From assembly GCF_003010495.1 (NCBI RefSeq), contig NZ_CP027570.1, positions 1,950,001 through 1,982,000 on the forward strand: 32,000 nt of DNA. The letters are read 5' to 3'. The position numbers and the translations under genes are program-made. The notes under the pieces are model-generated. The model saw only the letters and a list, made by a program, of their open reading frames with translations. It ran no database searches and had not been told where the DNA came from. Shown here in pieces: positions 1,537 through 32,000 of the stretch. The DNA comes from Megasphaera elsdenii DSM 20460 (GTDB taxonomy: Bacteria > Bacillota > Negativicutes > Veillonellales > Megasphaeraceae). Each line of letters begins with the position of its first letter. Positions within the stretch are counted from its first letter, which is position 1.

Positions 1537-1598
1537 GGGCCGCCTTCACAGGACGGCCCCTACGAACCACGAACCACTAGCCACTAGCCACGAGCCAC
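1537..1598 (+). repeat. Hairpin module (GGGCCGCC..GACGGCCCCTAC) followed by a 5-unit heptad array
   Basis: GGGCCGCCTTCACAGGACGGCCCCTAC is followed by GAACCAC GAACCAC TAGCCAC TAGCCAC GAGCCAC at exact 7-nt period. The array abuts or overlaps the tadA stop codon (1598-1600). Confidence 0.85.
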
Positions 1599-2053
1599 TA
1601 CTTCTTCCGTCTTTGGCGGAAGAAATCTTTCATCAGGGCCGCACATTCCTCGGCGCGGACGCCGGCTGTGACCTCGGTCCGGTGGTTGAGGCAGTCGTTG
1701 TCGACGAGGTGGAACAGGGACCGCACGGCACCTGCTTTGGGGTCGTCGCAGCCGTAGACGACCCGGTCCAGGCGGCTGTTGACGATGGCACCGGCACACA
1801 TGGGGCACGGTTCGACGGTCACATAAAGAGTACAGCCTGTCAGGCGCCAGCGGTTCAGGGCGCGGCAGGCTTTTTCAATGGCTAAGAGTTCGGCGTGGGC
1901 CGTAGCACAAGGCAGGCTTTCGCGCAGGTTATAGGCCCGGGCGACGACTTTCTTTTCATAGACAATGACGGCGCCGATGGGGATTTCCCCGACGGCATAG
2001 GCCGTCTTGGCTTCAGCCAGGGCTTTGCCCATATAAAATTCATCTTTGGTCAT
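1598..2053 (-). CDS. tadA: tRNA-specific adenosine(34) deaminase
   Basis: Contains the CDA zinc motifs HAELLAI and VTVEPCPMCAGAI. Length is 151 aa, and a GGAG-type RBS lies upstream on the minus strand. Confidence 0.92.
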   Translation of the reverse strand: MTKDEFYMGKALAEAKTAYAVGEIPIGAVIVYEKKVVARAYNLRESLPCATAHAELLAIEKACRALNRWRLTGCTLYVTVEPCPMCAGAIVNSRLDRVVYGCDDPKAGAVRSLFHLVDNDCLNHRTEVTAGVRAEECAALMKDFFRQRRKK

Positions 2054-2802: not shown

Positions 2803-2851
2803 CCGCCACTAGCCACTAGCCACTAGCAACTAGCTACGAACCACAGGCCAC
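2803..2851 (+). repeat. Heptad array, 7 units
   Basis: CCGCCAC TAGCCAC TAGCCAC TAGCAAC TAGCTAC GAACCAC AGGCCAC at 7-nt period. It lies between the TRIC-family gene and the DUF4127 gene. Confidence 0.85.
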
Positions 2852-2877
2852 GGCCTCTACAAATTTCCCCAGGCCCG

Positions 2878-7665: not shown

Positions 7666-7900
7666 TGAAGACTGGGTCTACTTCCAGGCCCCTCCGGCAG
7701 AAATGACCTTCATCAACCGCATCATCGAAGGCTGTGACTACCTGGGCGTCGTCACGGCCCTGGATGGCAGGAAGGGACTGGGCTTTGTCAGGACGACAAA
7801 AGACACGGCAGGGGAGACAAAAGAGGTACTCCAATCCCTGCCCATCCCGGTCCGGATCCTGAGCCGCCAGGAAGCGCTCGCCGCAGCTGGACAACAGTAG
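7658..7900 (+). CDS. Small conserved hypothetical protein (DUF4911-like)
   Basis: This 80-aa ORF overlaps the U32 stop by 8 nt, suggesting translational coupling. The FINRIIEGCDYLGVVTALD motif recalls DUF4911, assigned from memory only. Confidence 0.45.
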   Translation: MFDEDWVYFQAPPAEMTFINRIIEGCDYLGVVTALDGRKGLGFVRTTKDTAGETKEVLQSLPIPVRILSRQEALAAAGQQ

Positions 7901-7940
7901 TGTATAAAATTTACAGAATTTATAGTTATACGATTTAGTG

Positions 7941-7973
7941 AAAAGCGCTGCCCTTGACGGCAGCGCTTTTTTT
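7941..7973 (+). terminator. Rho-independent terminator
   Basis: A 9-bp stem AGCGCTGCC / GGCAGCGCT with loop CTTGAC is followed by a run of 7 T. Confidence 0.85.
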
Positions 7974-8074
7974 GCTCTTCAAAACATTGTATTTTAAAAA
8001 ATAGCAGTCCTTGTTGTAACATGTAAAATAGTTGTTTTTACTATCCATTTTTTGGCGGTTAGCCCTTTAAATTC

Positions 8075-8107
8075 TTGACAGAATTGGTGTATAATTAATG
8101 ATATAAT
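8075..8107 (+). promoter_or_regulatory. Putative glycogen-operon promoter region
   Basis: TTGACA (8075-8080) is followed by two -10-like boxes, TATAAT at 8090-8095 (spacer too short) and TGaTATAAT at 8099-8107 (extended -10). The exact usage is unclear. Confidence 0.4.
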
Positions 8108-8255
8108 CATAAAATACTTTATAGCGTATATTATATGCGTATACGGTACGCTATTGAATCCAAGACCCGCCGTCTGACGATACGATGTCCATTATCATAC
8201 ATACTGAAACCATAAGCGAAGCGGCCGGGTCCCAGTCAAGTAAGGAGGAGCTTCT

Positions 8256-16597: not shown

Positions 16598-16608
16598 AAT
16601 AGCGTTTT

Positions 16609-16686
16609 TCGTTTGTAGTTCATCGTTCATCGCAGGGAATGTTTTTTAGTTTCTTCGATGAACGACGAACGAACAACGACGAACGA
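16609..16686. repeat. Long imperfect hairpin built from inverted arrays of heptad CGACGAA/GAACGAC
   Basis: The left arm GTTCATCGTTCATCG (16618-16632) pairs 14/15 with the right arm CGATGAACGACGAAC (16656-16670). The right arm continues as GAACGAC GAACGAA CAACGAC GAACGAT at 7-nt period. Confidence 0.75.
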
Positions 16687-16722: not shown

Positions 16723-16760
16723 TAACGGCTAGCCACTAACCACTAGCCACTAATCGCCAC
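16723..16760 (+). repeat. Heptad array, ~5 degenerate units
   Basis: TAACGGC TAGCCAC TAACCAC TAGCCAC TAATCGCCAC lies immediately upstream of the RBS and ATG (16774) of the GH13::GH77 gene. Confidence 0.8.
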
Positions 16761-21946: not shown

Positions 21947-21996
21947 ACGCAGTCCGCCGCGGTCCCACGGACCGCATCCGTAGGCGTCCCGTCCAA

Positions 21997-22042
21997 GGCT
22001 CCCTTTATAGGGGAGCTGTCAGCGTCAGCTGACTGAGAGGTT
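21997..22042 (-). repeat. Half copy of the Type-A element, inverted orientation
   Basis: GGCTCCCTTTATAGGGGAGCTGTCAGCGTCAGCTGACTGAGAGGTT is close to the reverse complement of the right half of the 1243..1331 and 1440..1530 elements. Confidence 0.8.
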
Positions 22043-22057
22043 GAATTTGCGTCCCGC

Positions 22058-22119
22058 GGGATTCCCACAAGCGGGCCGCCCTTTGGGACGGCCCCTACTA
22101 GCCACGAGCCACGAGCCAT
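22058..22119 (+). repeat. 41-nt hairpin module plus 3-unit heptad array (upstream of topB)
   Basis: GGGATTCCCACAAGCGGGCCGCCCTTTGGGACGGCCCCTAC is followed by TAGCCAC GAGCCAC GAGCCAT. The module matches 24437..24477 at 40 of 41 positions. Confidence 0.88.
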
Positions 22120-22127
22120 GGTATGAT
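22119..22127 (+). promoter_or_regulatory. Putative extended -10 promoter (TGgTATGAT) for topB
   Basis: TGGTATGAT directly abuts the heptad array and lies ~37 nt upstream of ATG 22164. No -35 hexamer is evident. Confidence 0.35.
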
Positions 22128-22163
22128 ATAGGGTACAGTCTATTTCAGAAAGAGAGATGCCTT

Positions 22164-24299: not shown

Positions 24300-24309
24300 C
24301 GTAGAGGCC

Positions 24310-24416
24310 GTAGGGGCGCCCATAACCGGGCGCCCGCGCGAATCCCGTGGATAACGCAAACCGCATTGTAGGGGCTCCCGCGTGGGGAGCCCGCCGCGAA
24401 TCCTGTGGATAACGCA
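24310..24416 (+). repeat. Two tandem 49-nt hairpin-containing units (24310..24358 and 24368..24416)
   Basis: The units are GTAGGGGCGCCCATAACCGGGCGCCCGCGCGAATCCCGTGGATAACGCA and GTAGGGGCTCCCGCGTGGGGAGCCCGCCGCGAATCCTGTGGATAACGCA. The stems differ by a compensatory pair. Confidence 0.85.
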
Positions 24417-24436
24417 GTCCGCAGTCCGCATCCTGC

Positions 24437-24529
24437 GGGATTCCCACAAACGGGCCGCCCTTTGGGACGGCCCCTACGAGCTACGAACCACGAGTCACGA
24501 GCCACGAACCACGAGCCACGAATCACGGG
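24437..24529 (+). repeat. 41-nt hairpin module plus 8-unit heptad array (downstream of topB)
   Basis: GGGATTCCCACAAACGGGCCGCCCTTTGGGACGGCCCCTAC is followed by (C)TACGAG CTACGAA CCACGAG TCACGAG CCACGAA CCACGAG CCACGAA TCACGGG at 7-nt period. Confidence 0.88.
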
Positions 24530-24587
24530 ATTCCCACAACGGGCCGCCTTTACAGGACGGTCCCTACTAGCCACGAACACAGGCCTA
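24527..24587 (+). repeat. Diverged hairpin module plus short degenerate heptads
   Basis: GGGATTCCCACAACGGGCCGCCTTTACAGGACGGTCCCTAC is followed by TAGCCAC GAACACA GGCCTAT. The stem keeps pairing only via G-U on the + strand. Confidence 0.75.
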
Positions 24588-24596
24588 TGGTATTAT
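24588..24596 (+). promoter_or_regulatory. Putative extended -10 promoter (TGgTATTAT) for nifS-mnmA
   Basis: TGGTATTAT(AAAT) directly follows the repeat cluster, ~55 nt upstream of ATG 24652. Confidence 0.35.
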
Positions 24597-24651
24597 AAAT
24601 AATAGGCTATTTTTTATAGCTATTTTGTCAACTTTGGAGTCAGAATCATCA

Positions 24652-26954: not shown

Positions 26955-28079
26955 CTATGCCTCATTCTTCTTATCGTCTACTGCAACACTACTGCAACCG
27001 GGCAAAGAAACGCCTTTAATTTCGTCGTAGACCTCGTTTTGCATGGCGTTGATATAAATAGATGTCGTGACGATAGAAGAGTGTCTCAACTGCTTTGAGA
27101 TGGTTCTTAGAGGGACTCCCTCTTTGGCCAGTATCGTAGCATGTAGATGCCTCAATATATGGACCGAACCTCTGGGGGACACCCGTAACATAGCTCGGTG
27201 TAGCGTAGCCGTTACACTGTCTGGTTTAAGGTGTCTCCCATTTTTATCACAAAAGACGAATTCGCTACTGATTCCTGCCTTCCTGTATTCGTCTTTAAGG
27301 TTTGCAATCAGTTCCATTCCGTCGTCAGGTATCTGGACTATCTGTCCAGAGATGCCGTTCTTGGGAGTCTTTATATACAGACGATGAGATGTAGCCTGAC
27401 AGGTATAATTTCTCCTTACCGTAACGATACCTTTCTCTTCATCAATATCTTCCCACTTCAATCCGATTAGCTCTCCCCGTCGTAGGCCGGTATATAAACA
27501 AAATAATCCTAGGTATCTCATACCGATAGGGTGAAGTTCGTTCAGTGACTTAATGACATCCTCCACTTTCGGAAGTATGTATGGGTTCTGTTTGCGATGG
27601 CTTATAAAATCTAAATCAACCCCATGATGTATATATCCTTCTTTCTGAGCCTGTTTCAAAGCCCTCATATAGAATTTTACCGTCGTGTGAGTCGTAGCTT
27701 CTGCATAACCCATTCCTTTCATATTAGCTGCGAAAGCCTTCAATGTGGAATCTGTGACTTGTGATAGTTTGAGTTCCCCGGTAAGCCTTATGATTCTCCT
27801 GGATATAGATTGATAATTCTCTATGGTGCTGTTATTCGTAAGAGGCAGGCTATTGACATGGTGGGGAAGGTAATCAGCTACCGTCATATTCTTGCTCTGA
27901 GGGACGATTTCCCCCGATGTTAATTTCTCTTTTATCTTCTTCTTGAGTTTGGCCAACGCCTCGGTCTTGTTCTTTCCATAGGCGGTGATTCGTTTCTTGT
28001 CTATCGTCTCTTGGGCGCAATAAGTCCCATCTTTCCTTACATATACGGTTCCTTCTCCGTTGCTTCTCTTTCGTGCCAT
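26955..28079 (-). CDS. int: Tyrosine-type site-specific integrase
   Basis: The catalytic residues sit in the expected contexts: TGLRRGEL (R), HILRHLHAT (HxxR), LRHSS (H) and TTSIYI (Y). The N-terminus GEGTVYVRKDGTYCAQ is an arm-binding-type domain. Confidence 0.9.
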   Translation of the reverse strand: MARKRSNGEGTVYVRKDGTYCAQETIDKKRITAYGKNKTEALAKLKKKIKEKLTSGEIVPQSKNMTVADYLPHHVNSLPLTNNSTIENYQSISRRIIRLTGELKLSQVTDSTLKAFAANMKGMGYAEATTHTTVKFYMRALKQAQKEGYIHHGVDLDFISHRKQNPYILPKVEDVIKSLNELHPIGMRYLGLFCLYTGLRRGELIGLKWEDIDEEKGIVTVRRNYTCQATSHRLYIKTPKNGISGQIVQIPDDGMELIANLKDEYRKAGISSEFVFCDKNGRHLKPDSVTATLHRAMLRVSPRGSVHILRHLHATILAKEGVPLRTISKQLRHSSIVTTSIYINAMQNEVYDEIKGVSLPGCSSVAVDDKKNEA

Positions 28080-28108
28080 TCATACTCACCTCTTGTGTTT
28101 ATTATAAC

Positions 28109-28137
28109 ATTATATGCAATGACGCGGTAGATGACAA
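28109..28137 (-). promoter_or_regulatory. Putative leftward promoter for int (-35 TTGTCA, 17-nt spacer, -10 TATAAT, minus strand)
   Basis: Plus-strand TGACAA at 28132-28137 and ATTATA at 28109-28114. It lies ~30 nt upstream of the int ATG (28079). Confidence 0.5.
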
Positions 28138-28143
28138 AATGGC

Positions 28144-28172
28144 TTGACATAGAACATGCGTTCTATTATAAT
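28144..28172 (+). promoter_or_regulatory. Rightward consensus sigma-70-type promoter P1 with an inverted repeat in the spacer
   Basis: TTGACA (28144-28149), an exact 17-nt spacer, and TATAAT (28167-28172). The spacer is TAGAAC-ATGC-GTTCTA (28150-28165), an operator-like inverted repeat. Confidence 0.6.
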
Positions 28173-28215
28173 GAAAACAACAGGGAGAAAATTACAAAAA
28201 GTTAGTATAGTCAAT

Positions 28216-28244
28216 TTGACATACTCACTTACATGTAGTATAAT
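28216..28244 (+). promoter_or_regulatory. Rightward consensus sigma-70-type promoter P2
   Basis: TTGACA (28216-28221), an exact 17-nt spacer containing the palindrome TACATGTA (28230-28237), and TATAAT (28239-28244). It lies ~24 nt upstream of the Xis-like ORF. Confidence 0.6.
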
Positions 28245-28267
28245 AATCACAGGAAGTGAGTTAGGAG

Positions 28268-28441
28268 GTGAGCCCCATACTTCTCAAGACGAAAGAGGTC
28301 GCTGAGTACCTCAAGATTTCAGACCAGCAGGTAAGGCGGCTGGTGGACAAGAAGGAACTTCCGTGTATTAGAATCTCCCAAAGGGTCCTTCGGTTCAGGA
28401 AGGAAGACGTTGAAGAATTCATTTCAGGGAGGGAAATATAA
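28268..28441 (+). CDS. Excisionase/AlpA-type helix-turn-helix DNA-binding protein (57 aa; below the ORF-track size cutoff)
   Basis: My translation from GTG 28268 is VSPILLKTKEVAEYLKISDQQVRRLVDKKELPCIRISQRVLRFRKEDVEEFISGREI. This is the typical MerR-superfamily excisionase pattern. The stop overlaps the next ATG (TAATG). Confidence 0.7.
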   Translation: MSPILLKTKEVAEYLKISDQQVRRLVDKKELPCIRISQRVLRFRKEDVEEFISGREI

Positions 28442-28623
28442 TGGACCAATACATTGTGGAGTTCAGAATGTCGGGAAAGACTTTCCCGGAACACTATACC
28501 GTGGACACCCGGAAAGAGGCATACCAGCTCTTAGACGAGTTGATTGAAGAAGCCGAAGGCTGGGGGGACAGGTGGGAGGGTAAAATCTCGAAAGCTCACC
28601 ACTTCGACTATAAGTCCCACTAA
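28441..28623 (+). CDS. Hypothetical small protein (60 aa)
   Basis: A GGGAGGGA RBS is present, and the ORF is translationally coupled to the upstream ORF. I recognise no motif. Confidence 0.5.
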   Translation: MDQYIVEFRMSGKTFPEHYTVDTRKEAYQLLDELIEEAEGWGDRWEGKISKAHHFDYKSH

Positions 28624-28681
28624 GGGACTTCATTTACCCTTGAATACTCACTTTTAGTGATTTTTAATAGGAGGAATCATT

Positions 28682-29431
28682 ATGACAAACACAGAAATTA
28701 TGGAAGCATTGAAGGCACCGTTCAAACCGGAAGAGGTCATGTGGGTTATCGGACGCAAGAGCAAGGACAAGAGCAAAGCCGAAGCCATGGCTTACATCAG
28801 CTCCCGGGCGGTCATGGAACGTCTTGATGAAGTAGTAGGCCCCGATAAATGGGAAGTCGAATACATCCCGGCGGATATGGGGACAGCAACACGGACGACA
28901 TATAAAGGAGAAGAAACATATAGTATCAAAGGCTTCTTGGCCAAGATGACGTTGCATCTGCCGGAAGGTGATGTGTCGAGAATGGACGGAGCTAACTGCA
29001 CAGATTTCAGCCCGTTCAAAGGCGGTATTACCGGAGCCATGCGCCGTGTAGCTTCTGCTTTTGGCATTGGCCGTTACCTGTACAACCTGCCTCGTCAGTG
29101 GGTGCCTATTGACCAGTGGGGTAACTTTACAGAACGTCCGAAGCTTCCGAGTTGGGCGTTACCGGAAGGAACTGTTCAGGACGAACCGGAACCGAGACAG
29201 TCTTACCATCGTGAAGATTCCTACGAAGAACATCAGCCGCAGGCATCCTCGACTGGAGAAGTTATGATGCCGCCGAACACGAAGTACGCAGGCAAACCGG
29301 TATCTTCGGTTACGGACTTCGGTTATCTGACTTGGGTAGTCAATAAGTCTCGATTCTCGGAAGAAGTCAAGAACGCCGCAGCGAAAGTACTTGCCGATCA
29401 GCAGGCGGCTATGTATGACGAACCGGCTTAG
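28682..29431 (+). CDS. Rad52/22-family single-strand annealing protein (phage recombinase)
   Basis: LKAPFKPEEVMW...AYISSRAVMERLDEVVGPDKWEVEY...GAMRRVASAFGIGRYLYNLP matches the Rad52/Sak-type pattern (AYI.AR.V.DRLD...GP..W and FGIGRYLY). Confidence 0.7.
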   Translation: MTNTEIMEALKAPFKPEEVMWVIGRKSKDKSKAEAMAYISSRAVMERLDEVVGPDKWEVEYIPADMGTATRTTYKGEETYSIKGFLAKMTLHLPEGDVSRMDGANCTDFSPFKGGITGAMRRVASAFGIGRYLYNLPRQWVPIDQWGNFTERPKLPSWALPEGTVQDEPEPRQSYHREDSYEEHQPQASSTGEVMMPPNTKYAGKPVSSVTDFGYLTWVVNKSRFSEEVKNAAAKVLADQQAAMYDEPA

Positions 29432-29441
29432 GAGGTAGCCT

Positions 29442-29702
29442 ATGGAGTTAGACGTAAGACTTTGCCAGAAAGTAGGCGTAAGCGCGGCTATTGTCCATTC
29501 GGTCATTCGTAAGCAGTGCGAAGTGAAAGGTGTCCCCTTCGAGGGGCACCGGTTCGCTCGCATGTCCATTGGAGATATTAACCGTAAGATACCGTTCCTT
29601 TCGGCAAGGACAATAACAAGAGCGTTGGACCGACTCGAAGCAAAAGGGTTGGTAGAGAATAGAACATTCGTGGGAACCACAAAGTGGAGGAGAGCATTAT
29701 GA
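29442..29702 (+). CDS. Small winged-helix DNA-binding protein (86 aa)
   Basis: FLSARTITRALDRLEAKGLVEN is a MarR/wHTH-like recognition segment. The RBS is AGGAGG. Confidence 0.5.
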   Translation: MELDVRLCQKVGVSAAIVHSVIRKQCEVKGVPFEGHRFARMSIGDINRKIPFLSARTITRALDRLEAKGLVENRTFVGTTKWRRAL

Positions 29703-30130
29703 GTAGAATTAATGTTTACCAAAGGAATAAATGGGTTAATCTCTGGGTGAGTTACATGGGCGGGAAGAGGTTTTCTTGGCTTGTTTCTGCTAAGGCCACA
29801 ACTGATGAATTCGAGTGTGATTACTCTATGCTTAACAAGCTATGCAGGTCTGGGCTATCCAGTACAGCCAAGGGTATTTTCTCTTTTATACTCCTTAATC
29901 GGTATCTTCCCACGAAAGTCTGTCTATATGGACAGACAACTATTGCAAAGATGTATGGGTGCGCTAACAACACTGCCAGAAGAGCATTGAATGAACTCGA
30001 AGATAACAAAATTATTTACTCCCTCAAGATACACACTGGAAGGTATATAGCATACCAATACGTTATCAACGAATACAAAGAGTGGAACTTACCCGAAAAT
30101 AGTAAGGGGATACACGAGGAGAAAATTTGA
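29699..30130 (+). CDS. wHTH protein, tandem paralog 1 (143 aa)
   Basis: It has an ATGA overlap with the upstream ORF and a GGAGGA RBS. The central segment is TIAKMYGCANNTARRALNELEDNKII. It is a paralog of 30173..30646. Confidence 0.6.
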   Translation: MSRINVYQRNKWVNLWVSYMGGKRFSWLVSAKATTDEFECDYSMLNKLCRSGLSSTAKGIFSFILLNRYLPTKVCLYGQTTIAKMYGCANNTARRALNELEDNKIIYSLKIHTGRYIAYQYVINEYKEWNLPENSKGIHEEKI

Positions 30131-30172
30131 AAGTAGAACGTTCATAGGTAATAAGAAATGGAGGAAAGCACT

Positions 30173-30646
30173 ATGAACACAGAAAAGAAGAATATGATTT
30201 CGGTATATCCGGTTAATAAGTGGGTGAACAAGTGGGTCATAAAGAGAGGTGCTAGAGACTTCGTTTGGAGAATATCTACAAAAGCTCCTACAGATTCTTT
30301 ACATATATCTCCAGACCAAATGATGGTTTTAACAGAATCTGGATTATCTCCTACAGCTAAAAGTATATTTGCTTTTCTTTTCCATCACCGTTTTTCAACC
30401 ACAAGAGTTTGTCTATATGGCTCGTTGACCATTGCACGAATGTACGGATGTGCGAATAATACTGCCAAAAAAGCTCTGAAAGAACTCGAAGCTAGTAACA
30501 TTATAAATAAATTGAAGATTTACACTGGGAAGAATGTATCGTATCAGTATTACATTACCGACTATGGCAAATGGATTCTCCCTAAAAATAGGCGTTCTGG
30601 TGAAAATATTGAAGCCCCTATGCAAGTGATTGAATTAGATGAGTAG
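30173..30646 (+). CDS. wHTH protein, tandem paralog 2 (157 aa)
   Basis: About half of ungapped aligned residues are identical to paralog 1 (my manual count, 69 of ~133), e.g. NKWVN.WV, SGLS.TAK.IF.F, VCLYG..TIA.MYGCANNTA..AL.ELE. The RBS context is also duplicated. Confidence 0.6.
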   Translation: MNTEKKNMISVYPVNKWVNKWVIKRGARDFVWRISTKAPTDSLHISPDQMMVLTESGLSPTAKSIFAFLFHHRFSTTRVCLYGSLTIARMYGCANNTAKKALKELEASNIINKLKIYTGKNVSYQYYITDYGKWILPKNRRSGENIEAPMQVIELDE

Positions 30647-30667
30647 GGTGTCAATAATTAATCTCTA

Positions 30668-30691
30668 TCTAAACTTCTAAACCTCTAAACC
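30668..30691 (+). repeat. Three direct 8-bp-period iterons TCTAAAC(y)
   Basis: TCTAAAC occurs at 30668, 30676 and 30684. Confidence 0.7.
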
Positions 30692-30733
30692 TGTCCGAGG
30701 TAACGCACCTCTTACGAGGTGCTACCTCGGACA
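30692..30733. repeat. 18-bp-stem hairpin with a 2-nt bulge
   Basis: In TGTCCGAGGTA-AC-GCACCTC-TTAC-GAGGTGC-TACCTCGGACA the 11-bp and 7-bp stems pair perfectly. No U-tract follows. Confidence 0.8.
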
Positions 30734-30896
30734 ATAAGAGATTCGTTCGCTTTCGCTCTCTCATCTCTCTAGTATTACATACTAGTTAATTAATTAATTT
30801 AAATTCTAAAGTTCTACACTAACTCTAGAATTACAATCTTAAAATAGCTCGTTGACCACAGGCCAATGAGTTATCTTAATTAATTAAATATAATAA

Positions 30897-30946
30897 GTTG
30901 GTATGATTCTTTATCTGGAGGTAGAAAGAACGATACCAAGTAATTA
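30897..30946 (+). repeat. 50-bp stem-loop repeat, copy 1
   Basis: GTTGGTATGATTC...ATACCAAGTAATTA has the same 36-nt arm spacing as copy 2. The arms are mutually inverted (TTGGTAT/ATACCAA). The loop contains GGAGGTAGAAA, identical to the RBS region at 31163-31173. Confidence 0.75.
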
Positions 30947-31107
30947 CTTGTATATGTTAGATTGATAATAGAGAAATTCTTAACCGGTTAAAAGATTAGA
31001 TAAAGAAGATGTATCCCCAACCACGGGCGGGGGATAGATATTAATTAAATGAATGTTTTTAATCTCCTCATTTTCTCCCGGTTAATGTTTTACTCATCAT
31101 TAGATGA

Positions 31108-31157
31108 GTTGGTATGGTTCGTTCTACCGCCCGTGAATGAATCATACCAAGTAATTA
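31108..31157 (+). repeat. 50-bp stem-loop repeat, copy 2
   Basis: GTTGGTATGGTTC...ATACCAAGTAATTA gives a 16-bp stem if two G-U pairs are allowed on the + strand. It lies immediately upstream of the RBS of ORF 31173. Confidence 0.75.
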
Positions 31158-31172
31158 ATATAGGAGGTAGAA

Positions 31173-31481
31173 ATGAACAAAGACACTGAACGAGATAGGT
31201 TAGCTCAACTCTACCTTGACCAGACCGTCGGCAAAGAATGTTGGGGGTATCAGAACTACGAGAATGTAATGGAAGCTTTCAACAAGAGCCCTGACGGGGA
31301 CATCACAAATATGATAAACTATCTACAGACCCATGTGATGCCTCTAGGTACACCTCTCCGGGAACTGTATCATGAAGCTTCCTCATGGAGAGCTTTCGAC
31401 TACTACAAGGAACAGCCTCGTCCCAAACTGACTGACGAGGTGGCTTACTCCATTGACATGCTGATGAAATTAAGGGGGTAA
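31173..31481 (+). CDS. Hypothetical protein (102 aa)
   Basis: A strong RBS (AGGAGG) is present and the composition is coding-like. I recognise no motif. Confidence 0.5.
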   Translation: MNKDTERDRLAQLYLDQTVGKECWGYQNYENVMEAFNKSPDGDITNMINYLQTHVMPLGTPLRELYHEASSWRAFDYYKEQPRPKLTDEVAYSIDMLMKLRG

Positions 31482-31485
31482 TATT

Positions 31486-31698
31486 ATGACAGAACAGGAA
31501 AGACAGGATAAGATTTTTAAAGGATTGGTCATGTTATTGATGCAAGTCGATAAATACTTTGAACGGGAGGATGATGGTGCCGAGAAAGGAGAATTGGTTA
31601 TTCTCAAAGGCCTTATCCGGAAACGGAAAGATAGTTTACTTGACTTACTGGAGAGAAAGAATGATAACATCATCCAGTTCCCGGGATTGAAAGACTGA
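31486..31698 (+). CDS. Hypothetical protein (70 aa)
   Basis: The RBS is AAGGGGG. The sequence is charged and helical-looking. I recognise no motif. Confidence 0.45.
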   Translation: MTEQERQDKIFKGLVMLLMQVDKYFEREDDGAEKGELVILKGLIRKRKDSLLDLLERKNDNIIQFPGLKD

Positions 31699-31714
31699 TA
31701 TTCAGGAGGCACAC

Positions 31715-32000
31715 ATGGACATCCAAAACATCATCATTCAGAAAATAGATTTACCACAGTTCATCAAAGATTACGCTCATGTGGAACTTGTACGCAAAGG
31801 GAATGGCTGGCGGTGTAAATGCCCCATCCATGAGAACTCTGTCAATCCAGAGGCTATGTATGTTGACGACCGTGGCGGTTACTACTGCTTCGCCTGCAAC
31901 TCGGGAGGGAATGTCATCAACTTCCTTTCTGATTACGAGCATATCAGCTACAGTGCCGCCACAGAACGTCTTGCCTCTATGCTGAATATCAACCTCAAAG
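31715..32000 (+). CDS. DNA primase, N-terminal CHC2 zinc-finger domain (partial; continues past window end; absent from ORF track)
   Basis: My translation from ATG 31715 (RBS AGGAGG) is MDIQNIIIQKIDLPQFIKDYAHVELVRKGNGWRCKCPIHENSVNPEAMYVDDRGGYYCFACNSGGNVINFLSDYEHISY... The pattern C.CP.H...C..C..GG.VI.F is the DnaG/phage-primase zinc finger. The frame has no stop up to 32000. Confidence 0.75.
   Translation, partial: MDIQNIIIQKIDLPQFIKDYAHVELVRKGNGWRCKCPIHENSVNPEAMYVDDRGGYYCFACNSGGNVINFLSDYEHISYSAATERLASMLNINLK

Follow-up and report, generated by a model that had tools for sequence, protein, structure and literature searches.

Heptameric SSRs are over-represented in bacterial intergenic DNA (Mrazek et al. 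2007; PMC4679880, PMC4692102). They form the most over-represented class of long SSRs in bacteria, and the cause of this excess has not been established. Described families include the STRR of cyanobacteria (Mazel 1990), GGGAATC of Xanthomonas, and GGGGAYT of Nostoc (PMC4692102), and TAACTGA heptads are found in Beggiatoaceae, cyanobacteria, and Bacteroidetes (PMC4679880). The 7-bp repeats of Haemophilus influenzae hmw1A and hmw2A are likewise heptanucleotide SSRs that lie upstream of genes and vary among isolates, and their copy number changes the transcription or 5'-UTR processing of a surface adhesin (PMC8262952, PMC12721329). GTAG-tagged REPs are GC-rich imperfect palindromes of 20–40 nt with an unpaired GTAG at one end and a bulge in the stem (PMC2817692, PMC3733652, PMC8266576). 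They occur as many near-identical copies (tens to hundreds per genome), cluster in both orientations as BIMEs, and differ in presence or absence between strains. Their cognate transposase gene, RAYT (TnpA_REP), is of the Y1 HUH type and usually has REPs on its flanks. They lie in unidirectional and convergent spacers near the 3' ends of genes, where the tag may supply a TAG stop codon (PMC3733652). The text of the 2013 survey of REPs mentions neither Megasphaera nor Firmicutes (PMC3733652).

Here we describe arrays of the 7-nt unit CCAC[G/T]A[G/A] in a 32,000-nt stretch of DNA, referred to below as the window, and in related Megasphaera loci. An earlier note on this DNA had not recognised the repeats as a described family. 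However, bacterial heptanucleotide SSRs are a described class (PMC4679880, PMC4692102), and the arrays share its head-to-tail 7-nt units, intergenic position, single dominant family per lineage, variation of length and sequence among close relatives, occasional inverted hairpin-forming pairs, and excess of period 7. They differ from the known heptad SSRs in their unit, in their host, a gut anaerobe of the Negativicutes, and in being coupled in phase to a REP-like hairpin. A TAACTGA-type start-codon heptamer was considered and rejected because the unit differs and only 5 of the 58 flank-clusters of arrays lie within 40 nt of a start codon. G-quadruplexes are also unlikely since the unit is not G-rich. 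Searching the literature for these exact units and for repeats in Megasphaera returned no relevant paper. What is new here is the fusion, in phase, of heptad arrays to GTAG-tagged REP-like hairpins in a Negativicutes host. The arrays are probably heptanucleotide microsatellites of VNTR type within a mosaic of GTAG-tagged REP-like hairpins that fills the intergenic spacers of Megasphaera.

Heptad arrays and hairpins in the window

The two-unit pattern CCACKARCCACKAR, with at most one mismatch, has 18 matches in the window, and all 18 are on the + strand. The shuffle expectation for the two-unit CCAC[G/T]A[G/A] pattern is 0.13 (sd 0.37), and 18 matches were reached in 0 of 100 shuffles. Single units number 25 on the + strand and 5 on the − strand. 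Period-7 repeats were called by TRF at 1562–1598, 2805–2834, 16729–16753, 22100–22118, and 24476–24527, while an in-phase scan of the window gave five arrays on the + strand and none on the − strand (Table 1). Three or more head-to-tail copies are therefore present above chance, as in a heptanucleotide SSR. The arrays also lie outside coding sequence: all those of the window are intergenic on a Pfam-checked gene map, filling five of the approximately seven spacers longer than 100 nt, and 0 of 160 arrays in the wider set fall inside a gene call. TRF, the in-phase scan, and the gene map thus bear out the earlier description of the repeats as non-coding, intergenic, and of period 7. Six loci had been counted; five of them are real arrays, and the sixth (24568–24587) is only the two-unit remnant of Table 1.

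Within the unit, positions 1–4 and 6 are nearly invariant (C.93, C.82, A.95, C.99, and A.98, respectively), whereas G or T stands at position 5 and A or G at position 7; the last unit is preferentially CCACTAA. The array in the topB-iscS spacer reads CTACGAG CTACGAA CCACGAG TCACGAG CCACGAA CCACGAG CCACGAA TCACGGG. In the predicted fold of the + strand, it is unpaired between hairpins, and the array alone folds no better than its shuffles (z near 0), in agreement with the proposal of an unstructured tract beside a stable hairpin. Scans with Rfam 15 and for tRNAs gave no match at gathering score. Array 2 is flanked by a glycine-transporter gene and by a promoter-like site, TGnTATAAT, that belongs to the DUF4127 gene, and array 3 lies approximately 20–30 nt upstream of the amylase/MalQ start codon. 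The second heptad family, in which inverted arrays face each other, forms a long hairpin (z=−6.3).

Table 1. Repeat features of the window (positions from its first nucleotide)
Feature	Coordinates	Strand	Description
REP-like hairpin	1537–1563	−	GGGCCGCC-TTCACA-GGACGGCCC followed by CTAC (GTAG tag on the − strand)
Heptad array 1	1560–1601	+	6 units, CTACGAA ... CCACTAC; TRF and in-phase scan
Heptad array 2	2806–2854	+	~7 units, CCACTAG three times, then degenerate
Second heptad family	16603–16686		GTTCATC twice facing GAYGAAC-type four times, inverted, after glgA
Heptad array 3	16733–16753	+	3 perfect units; degenerate flanks 16723–16760
41-nt REP-like module	22058–22098	−	GGGATTCCCACAAGC-GGGCCGCCC-TTT-GGGACGGCCC-CTAC
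Heptad array 4	22095–22115	+	3 units, upstream of topB
Two GTAG-forward REP-like hairpins	24310–24393	+	GTAGGGGCGCCC..., GTAGGGGCTCCC..., after the topB stop codon
Short CGCAGTC heptad run	24413–24430	+	next module in phase after CCGC/CTGC
41-nt REP-like module, copy 1 of topB-iscS spacer	24437–24477	−	
Heptad array 5	24474–24529	+	8 units, topB-iscS spacer
41-nt REP-like module, copy 2	24527–24567	−	inserted in phase, TCAC / module / TAG
Two-unit remnant	24564–24577	+	CTACTAG CCACGAA, upstream of the cysteine desulfurase gene

Four tracts of heptads, starting at 1560, 22095, 24474, and 24564, begin at the CTAC that closes a GC hairpin, as had been noticed before; the arrays at 2806 and 16733 do not. 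Read on the opposite strand, the hairpin ending in CCCCTAC is GTAG-GGGCCGTCC-CAAAG-GGCGGCCC, that is, GTAG plus a GC stem of 9 bp. The CTAC of the + strand at these four positions is thus an unpaired GTAG at one end of the element on the − strand, and GTAG-forward copies are located at 24310 and 24368. The element is a GC-rich imperfect palindrome within 20–40 nt that is predicted to fold as single-stranded DNA into a 9-bp stem (−9.8 to −10.4 kcal/mol) with a bulged A or a T.G pair. There are 6 hairpin copies in the 32 kb and 145 stem-matching copies in 0.9 Mb of related loci, which were chosen by the motif. Across these 145 copies, the stems are essentially invariant (CGGGCCGCC / GGACGGCCC, with the bulged A on the C-rich strand). 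The loops are variable (CTTTG, TTTCA, TTTACA, TTCACA, and others), with 36 variants in the 145 copies. A covariation test of the hairpin was uninformative because the stems do not vary. Between 24300 and 24570, the GTAG-forward hairpins, which have other stems, and the two reverse modules make up a BIME-like cluster with both orientations. Moreover, the elements prefer unidirectional and convergent spacers near the 3' ends of ORFs (24 unidirectional, 11 convergent, and 4 divergent contexts of array clusters).

The GTAG tag, the bulged stem, and the REP-type distribution all agree with the published description; therefore, the hairpins are considered REP-like. The earlier note had excluded REP and BIME, but a GTAG followed by a GC-rich bulged palindrome corresponds to the published definition of GTAG-tagged REPs (PMC3733652). 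As far as sequence and predicted fold can tell, REP/BIME is the best match for the hairpins, and for them that exclusion was wrong. They differ from REPs in that no RAYT was found in the window or in the 0.9 Mb of related loci, which are a partial sample. A role of the module as an intrinsic terminator was rejected because CTAC and heptads follow it instead of a T-run; separate true terminators follow approximately 20 of the arrays. Another module, a 48-nt double hairpin (AAAACCTCTCAGTCAGCTGCGCTGACAGCTCCCCTATCAGGGGAGCCA), occurs at 1285–1332, 1484–1531, and, inverted, at 21982–22040. Its first two copies are identical and belong to a duplication of approximately 200 nt inside the spacer 1249–1545, and it is also present in M. 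elsdenii and metagenome loci.

The 41–42-nt module (GGRAWTCCCACAA...GGACGGCCCCTAC) sits in phase within a heptad, in the arrangement CCAC / module / GAG. Its left flank is NNRC in 19 of 20 distinct copies (CCAC, CCGC, TCAC, CTGC, and others), and its right flank is GAG, GAA, or TAG. The placement is in phase at 4 of 5 independent loci (p=0.002). Locus L154 has three units without the module, whereas L152 and L243 have the module between the same flanks. On the strand that carries the tag, the unit reads CT-N-GTRG and lies beside CT-C-GTAG-hairpin, so that it reiterates the tag together with its 5' CT. The heptad unit may have been seeded from, or may have co-evolved with, the 7 nt around the REP tag. 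Classical BIMEs have fixed motifs as linkers, whereas in the present case a heptad array that can expand, with a unit similar to the tag itself, takes their place. The hairpin-plus-heptad module was also found in M. elsdenii and in an uncultured Megasphaera MAG.

Variation between strains and species

A metagenome scan for the succession of hairpin, CTAC, and heptads gave at least 115 gut loci, and the 115 that were analysed comprise 0.88 Mb selected on the motif. The window and these related Megasphaera loci together contain 160 arrays, which fall into 58 flank-clusters. Over 7.5 kb, the window shares 90.7% identity with Megasphaera sp. WILCCON 0056 (L071), and it is 97–98% identical to many human-gut metagenome contigs. 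Most of the sequences compared are metagenome contigs assembled from short reads, in which repeat lengths can be wrong; the isolate genome gives qualitatively the same picture.

Whole units differ between orthologous arrays with nearly identical flanks, as is characteristic of SSRs. The orthologues of array 24474 have 7, 7, 7, 7, 9, and 19 units, compared with 8 in the window (7 in a stricter scan). Those of array 1560 have 4, 6, 9, 9, and 9 units, those of array 2806 have 4 to 7, and another orthologous locus has 3, 5, 9, 10, and 12. The isolate WILCCON 0056 carries 13 and approximately 23 units at two orthologous spacers, the latter being array 24474, and one orthologous array has 3 versus 13 units across species. 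Copy number thus varies between strains, the comparison that the earlier note had called for. In the isolate, the arrays are blocks of locally homogenised variants (CCACGAR, CCCCTAA, CCCCTAG, and CCACTAG). The changes in copy number may have arisen from slipped-strand mispairing during replication. Period 7 dominates the retrieved genomes, with 169 arrays against 3 to 13 for other periods, which agrees with the known excess of heptameric SSRs. Slippage-driven repeats that travel with REP/BIME-like elements are the best-supported reading.

The arrays occupy the same spacers in relatives at approximately 91% genome identity. Random orientation and location genome-wide, together with a lack of conservation between related strains, had been named as the sign of neutral slippage debris. 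The outcome of this check is intermediate: orthologous spacers retain their arrays from strain to strain and from species to species, but the units vary freely in number and sequence. In the topB-iscS spacer, the ends are kept and the centre is swapped between strains that are 97.7% identical. The centre consists of two modules with 7–19 units, of one module with a few degenerate units, or of the different heptad of locus L202. The L202 segment 7476–7842 is orthologous to 24300–24651 of the window, to which this locus is 97.7% identical overall. It has no REP module and contains instead six units of ACTTCAA/ACATCAA in the same orientation, and the last of these ends in TTCAAA at a distance of 17 nt from the downstream TATGAT. 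That the slot holds another C/A-rich heptad, (ACTTCAA)n, in unchanged orientation hints at some constraint and, like the persistence of the arrays at approximately 91% identity, counts against the slippage reading.

At about ten other loci and at L143 and L211, the latter two orthologous to 21947–22163, a composite palindromic element is built of heptads. Its left part is (GTTTGTA)n-like, its right part is (CAAACTA)n or CCRCTAR, its centre is AT-rich (GGTTAAAAATTTAAAACC), and an intrinsic terminator usually follows it.

When one genome per species was scanned for three CCACKAR units, at least 120 stretches from at least 15 phyla matched, an archaeal MAG among them. These sequences (L009–L128) contain CCACTAA, CCACTAG, and CCACGAG arrays in cyanobacteria, Chloroflexota, Acidobacteriota, Planctomycetota, Bacteroidota, Proteobacteria, Patescibacteria, and a Nanoarchaeota MAG. 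The arrays often adjoin other heptad arrays, and period 7 exceeds periods 5, 6, and 8–10 by more than 10 to 1. In practical terms, gut Megasphaera strains can be resolved with the arrays as VNTR markers. The repeats also interrupt short-read assemblies: the Logan contigs L004–L008, which carry the iscS-like gene, stop within the heptad/REP region or at its edge.

Orientation, co-option, and competing explanations

The large ORFs assigned by Pfam on the + strand of the window are galU-like, DUF4127, mltG, the glgCDPBA cluster, malQ, OLD-like, topB, iscS-like, and mnmA; only tadA (1598–2053) and an integrase gene (26955–28079) are on the − strand. Genes of the related loci were called with our own codon-usage caller, which was trained on the Pfam-confirmed genes of the window. 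Both flanking genes are known in 39 of the 58 flank-clusters, giving the 24, 11, and 4 contexts mentioned above. Between unidirectional genes, the array is sense in 18 and antisense in 6 (p=0.023). The upstream gene is co-oriented in 34 of 47 clusters and opposed in 13 (p=0.003), while the downstream gene gives no significant preference (27 versus 23). The array follows the majority gene direction of its locus in 33 cases and opposes it in 16 (p=0.021). Where an intrinsic terminator follows the array, the upstream gene is co-oriented in 15 and opposed in 3 (p=0.008). Approximately ten arrays lie within 4 nt of a convergent stop codon.

The claim of a single orientation thus holds inside the window but not strictly among the related loci, and a strict match with gene direction fails there in view of the antisense, convergent, and divergent cases. 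The strand bias as such is real. Pure neutral slippage does not predict the bias of 34 versus 13 and 15 versus 3. It may reflect the orientation of the REP element that carries the array, and mild selection may also favour a C/A-rich strand that stays inert and unstructured in transcripts reaching from the upstream gene as far as its terminator. The array as a whole probably has no sequence-specific function. These data do not separate transcription-linked from replication-linked causes of the bias. The GC skew of the + strand is negative in the window. However, related genes totalling 0.63 Mb have a C-rich coding strand in both the majority direction (−0.05) and the minority direction (−0.09) of their loci; therefore, the skew is a coding-strand effect and is unusable as a replication marker. 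A Chi-like or KOPS-like polar motif was also set aside by inference because the G-rich strand mostly runs against the direction shared by most genes, and because the arrays consist of tandem and not of dispersed units.

Some terminal units coincide with expression signals. TAGCCA at 22099–22104 lies 17 nt upstream of a TG-extended TATGAT (22122–22127) before topB, and TAGCCA at 24568–24573 lies 17 nt upstream of a TG-extended TATTAT (24591–24596) before the cysteine desulfurase gene. The length of array 4 and the 17-nt spacing are kept in relatives at 91–93% identity. The three units at the topB promoter have a constant length in all orthologues, while arrays farther upstream vary. The TAG stop codon of tadA (1598–1600, − strand) comes from the last heptad of array 1, CCACTAC, where orthologues have CCACTAT. 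To judge from these sequences, the terminal units are local co-options as a putative −35-like hexamer or stop codon and not a copy-number switch, that is, repeat debris becomes part of promoters and stop codons. A general function of the arrays as stop codons in three frames, which a period of 7 (1 mod 3) would permit, was rejected because TAA or TAG occurs in only 208 of 662 units, and the CCACGAR units have no stop codon on either strand.

The arrays might instead be made, or used as landing pads, by a Y1 HUH transposase of the RAYT/IS200 type. This explanation, which we regard as unlikely, overlaps with the slippage reading and differs from it in mechanism alone. In this scheme, a transposase recognising the bulged, GTAG-tagged hairpin would cut at a CT situated slightly 5' of the tag. 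The 7-nt units would be made and resized by successive rounds of cutting and strand transfer at staggered CT-N-GTRG sites, and the module would be inserted 3' of CCAC or CCGC in a peel-and-paste manner. TnpA_REP is known to take GTAG as a guide, to require the stem bulge, and to cut at CT or CA 5' or 3' of the REP (PMC8266576). On the GTAG strand, the units CTCGTGG, TTCGTGG, or CTAGTGG indeed adjoin CTCGTAG-hairpin. The in-phase modules with their NNRC flank, their presence/absence polymorphism, and the combination of invariant stems with variable loops, which suits recognition by a protein better than RNA folding, also point in this direction. However, the absence of a RAYT noted above (tblastn with E. 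coli RAYT and IS200 TnpA queries) argues against it, and the sole Y1 transposase in the sampled loci is an ordinary IS200 with different end hairpins. Half of the units begin with TT rather than CT. In other phyla, the same heptads have no association with a hairpin (11 upstream versus 7 downstream, in 127 arrays). Loss of the module could also come from deletion between the CCAC and CTAC microhomology, and our literature search gave no published microsatellite generated by a RAYT. In its most specific form, the arrays would be both enzymatic products and targets of a REP-associated Y1 transposase that, instead of polymerase slippage by itself, writes and resizes the units and inserts the module 3' of CCAC, which we consider quite improbable. 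We give equally little weight to the accompanying idea that each CT-N-GTRG unit copies the cleavage-site-plus-guide motif of the adjacent GTAG hairpin. The coupling in phase of a heptad to a GTAG-tagged hairpin, the substrate type of RAYTs, nevertheless makes one hypothesis on the origin of heptads testable. If it is true, it would provide a mechanism for at least part of the 7-nt repeat excess in bacterial genomes; should slippage alone account for the arrays, the finding is an ordinary one.

A copy number that ranges freely from 3 to 23 at a single locus does not suit a functional RNA tract, in which a C/A-rich, G-poor 3' or 5' UTR would bind a protein or space hairpins from terminators. Candidate binders would be Rho, at a rut-like site, or a CA-motif RNA-binding protein, and such a tract would explain the sense-strand bias. 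The co-oriented upstream genes, in particular where a stop codon precedes the array and an intrinsic terminator follows it, are consistent with such a tract, as are the unpaired array in the + strand fold and the different C/A-rich heptad in the same slot of L202; a comparable idea has been put forward for the TAACTGA repeats. However, a quarter of the arrays between unidirectional genes are antisense to both neighbours, no Rfam match was obtained, and the contexts are a mixture of terminators, promoters, stop codons, and start codons. We therefore hold an RNA function to be very unlikely. A phase-variation (contingency) switch, with copy number altering promoter geometry and thereby switching the downstream gene, appears extremely improbable. 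Copy number does differ by strain, three arrays of the window end at or near promoter-like sites, and TAGCCA precedes an extended −10 by 17 nt at two of them (22099 and 24568). Nevertheless, the variable part is upstream of the −35-like hexamer, so that slippage leaves the −35/−10 spacing unchanged, and the three units at the topB promoter do not vary in length. The downstream genes (topB, iscS, and DUF4127) are housekeeping genes, and elsewhere most arrays precede terminators or convergent stop codons. The H. influenzae hmw repeats differ in this respect, since the variable units here lie upstream of the −35 region or in the 3' regions of housekeeping genes. A classification as phase-variable SSRs, whose repeats sit in an ORF, between the −35 and −10 elements, or in a 5' UTR and thereby let the unit number affect expression, was rejected for this reason.

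Other features of the window and related loci

Two genes for Y1 transposases were observed among the comparison sequences. In one Megasphaera strain, a tnpA of the IS200 family, which has end hairpins of its own, is inserted next to heptad arrays (L150, 4877–5305), and its product is 55% identical to a Salmonella IS200 TnpA. The other, from a Terriglobia MAG, is a RAYT-like ORF for a Y1 transposase in which an HVHLL motif occurs (L110, 4215–4775); it lies 2.5 kb from a CCACTAA array, and no direct link between the two is evident.

Two DnaA-box 9-mers are present on the − strand of the topB-iscS spacer, one near-perfect (TTATCCACG, 24346–24354) and one perfect (TTATCCACA, 24404–24412). Both are inside a duplicated unit that adjoins the GTAG-forward hairpins. 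A DnaA-box role was rejected since 4 boxes were found across the window and 5 are expected, and hence there is no enrichment.

The 350-nt spacer upstream of glgC (7900–8255) is AT-rich and contains neither heptads nor REP modules. It holds a bidirectional terminator (7945–7972) and a near-consensus TTGACA-N17-TATAAT promoter (approximately 8076–8104). The end of the window (26955–32000) is a low-GC island (39–49%) that encodes a tyrosine integrase on the − strand, an HTH_17 protein, and a Rad52-like protein. L001 has this island; it is missing from L002 and L003, where lepA directly follows mnmA. It resembles an integrative element or prophage that varies between strains and has entered immediately downstream of mnmA.
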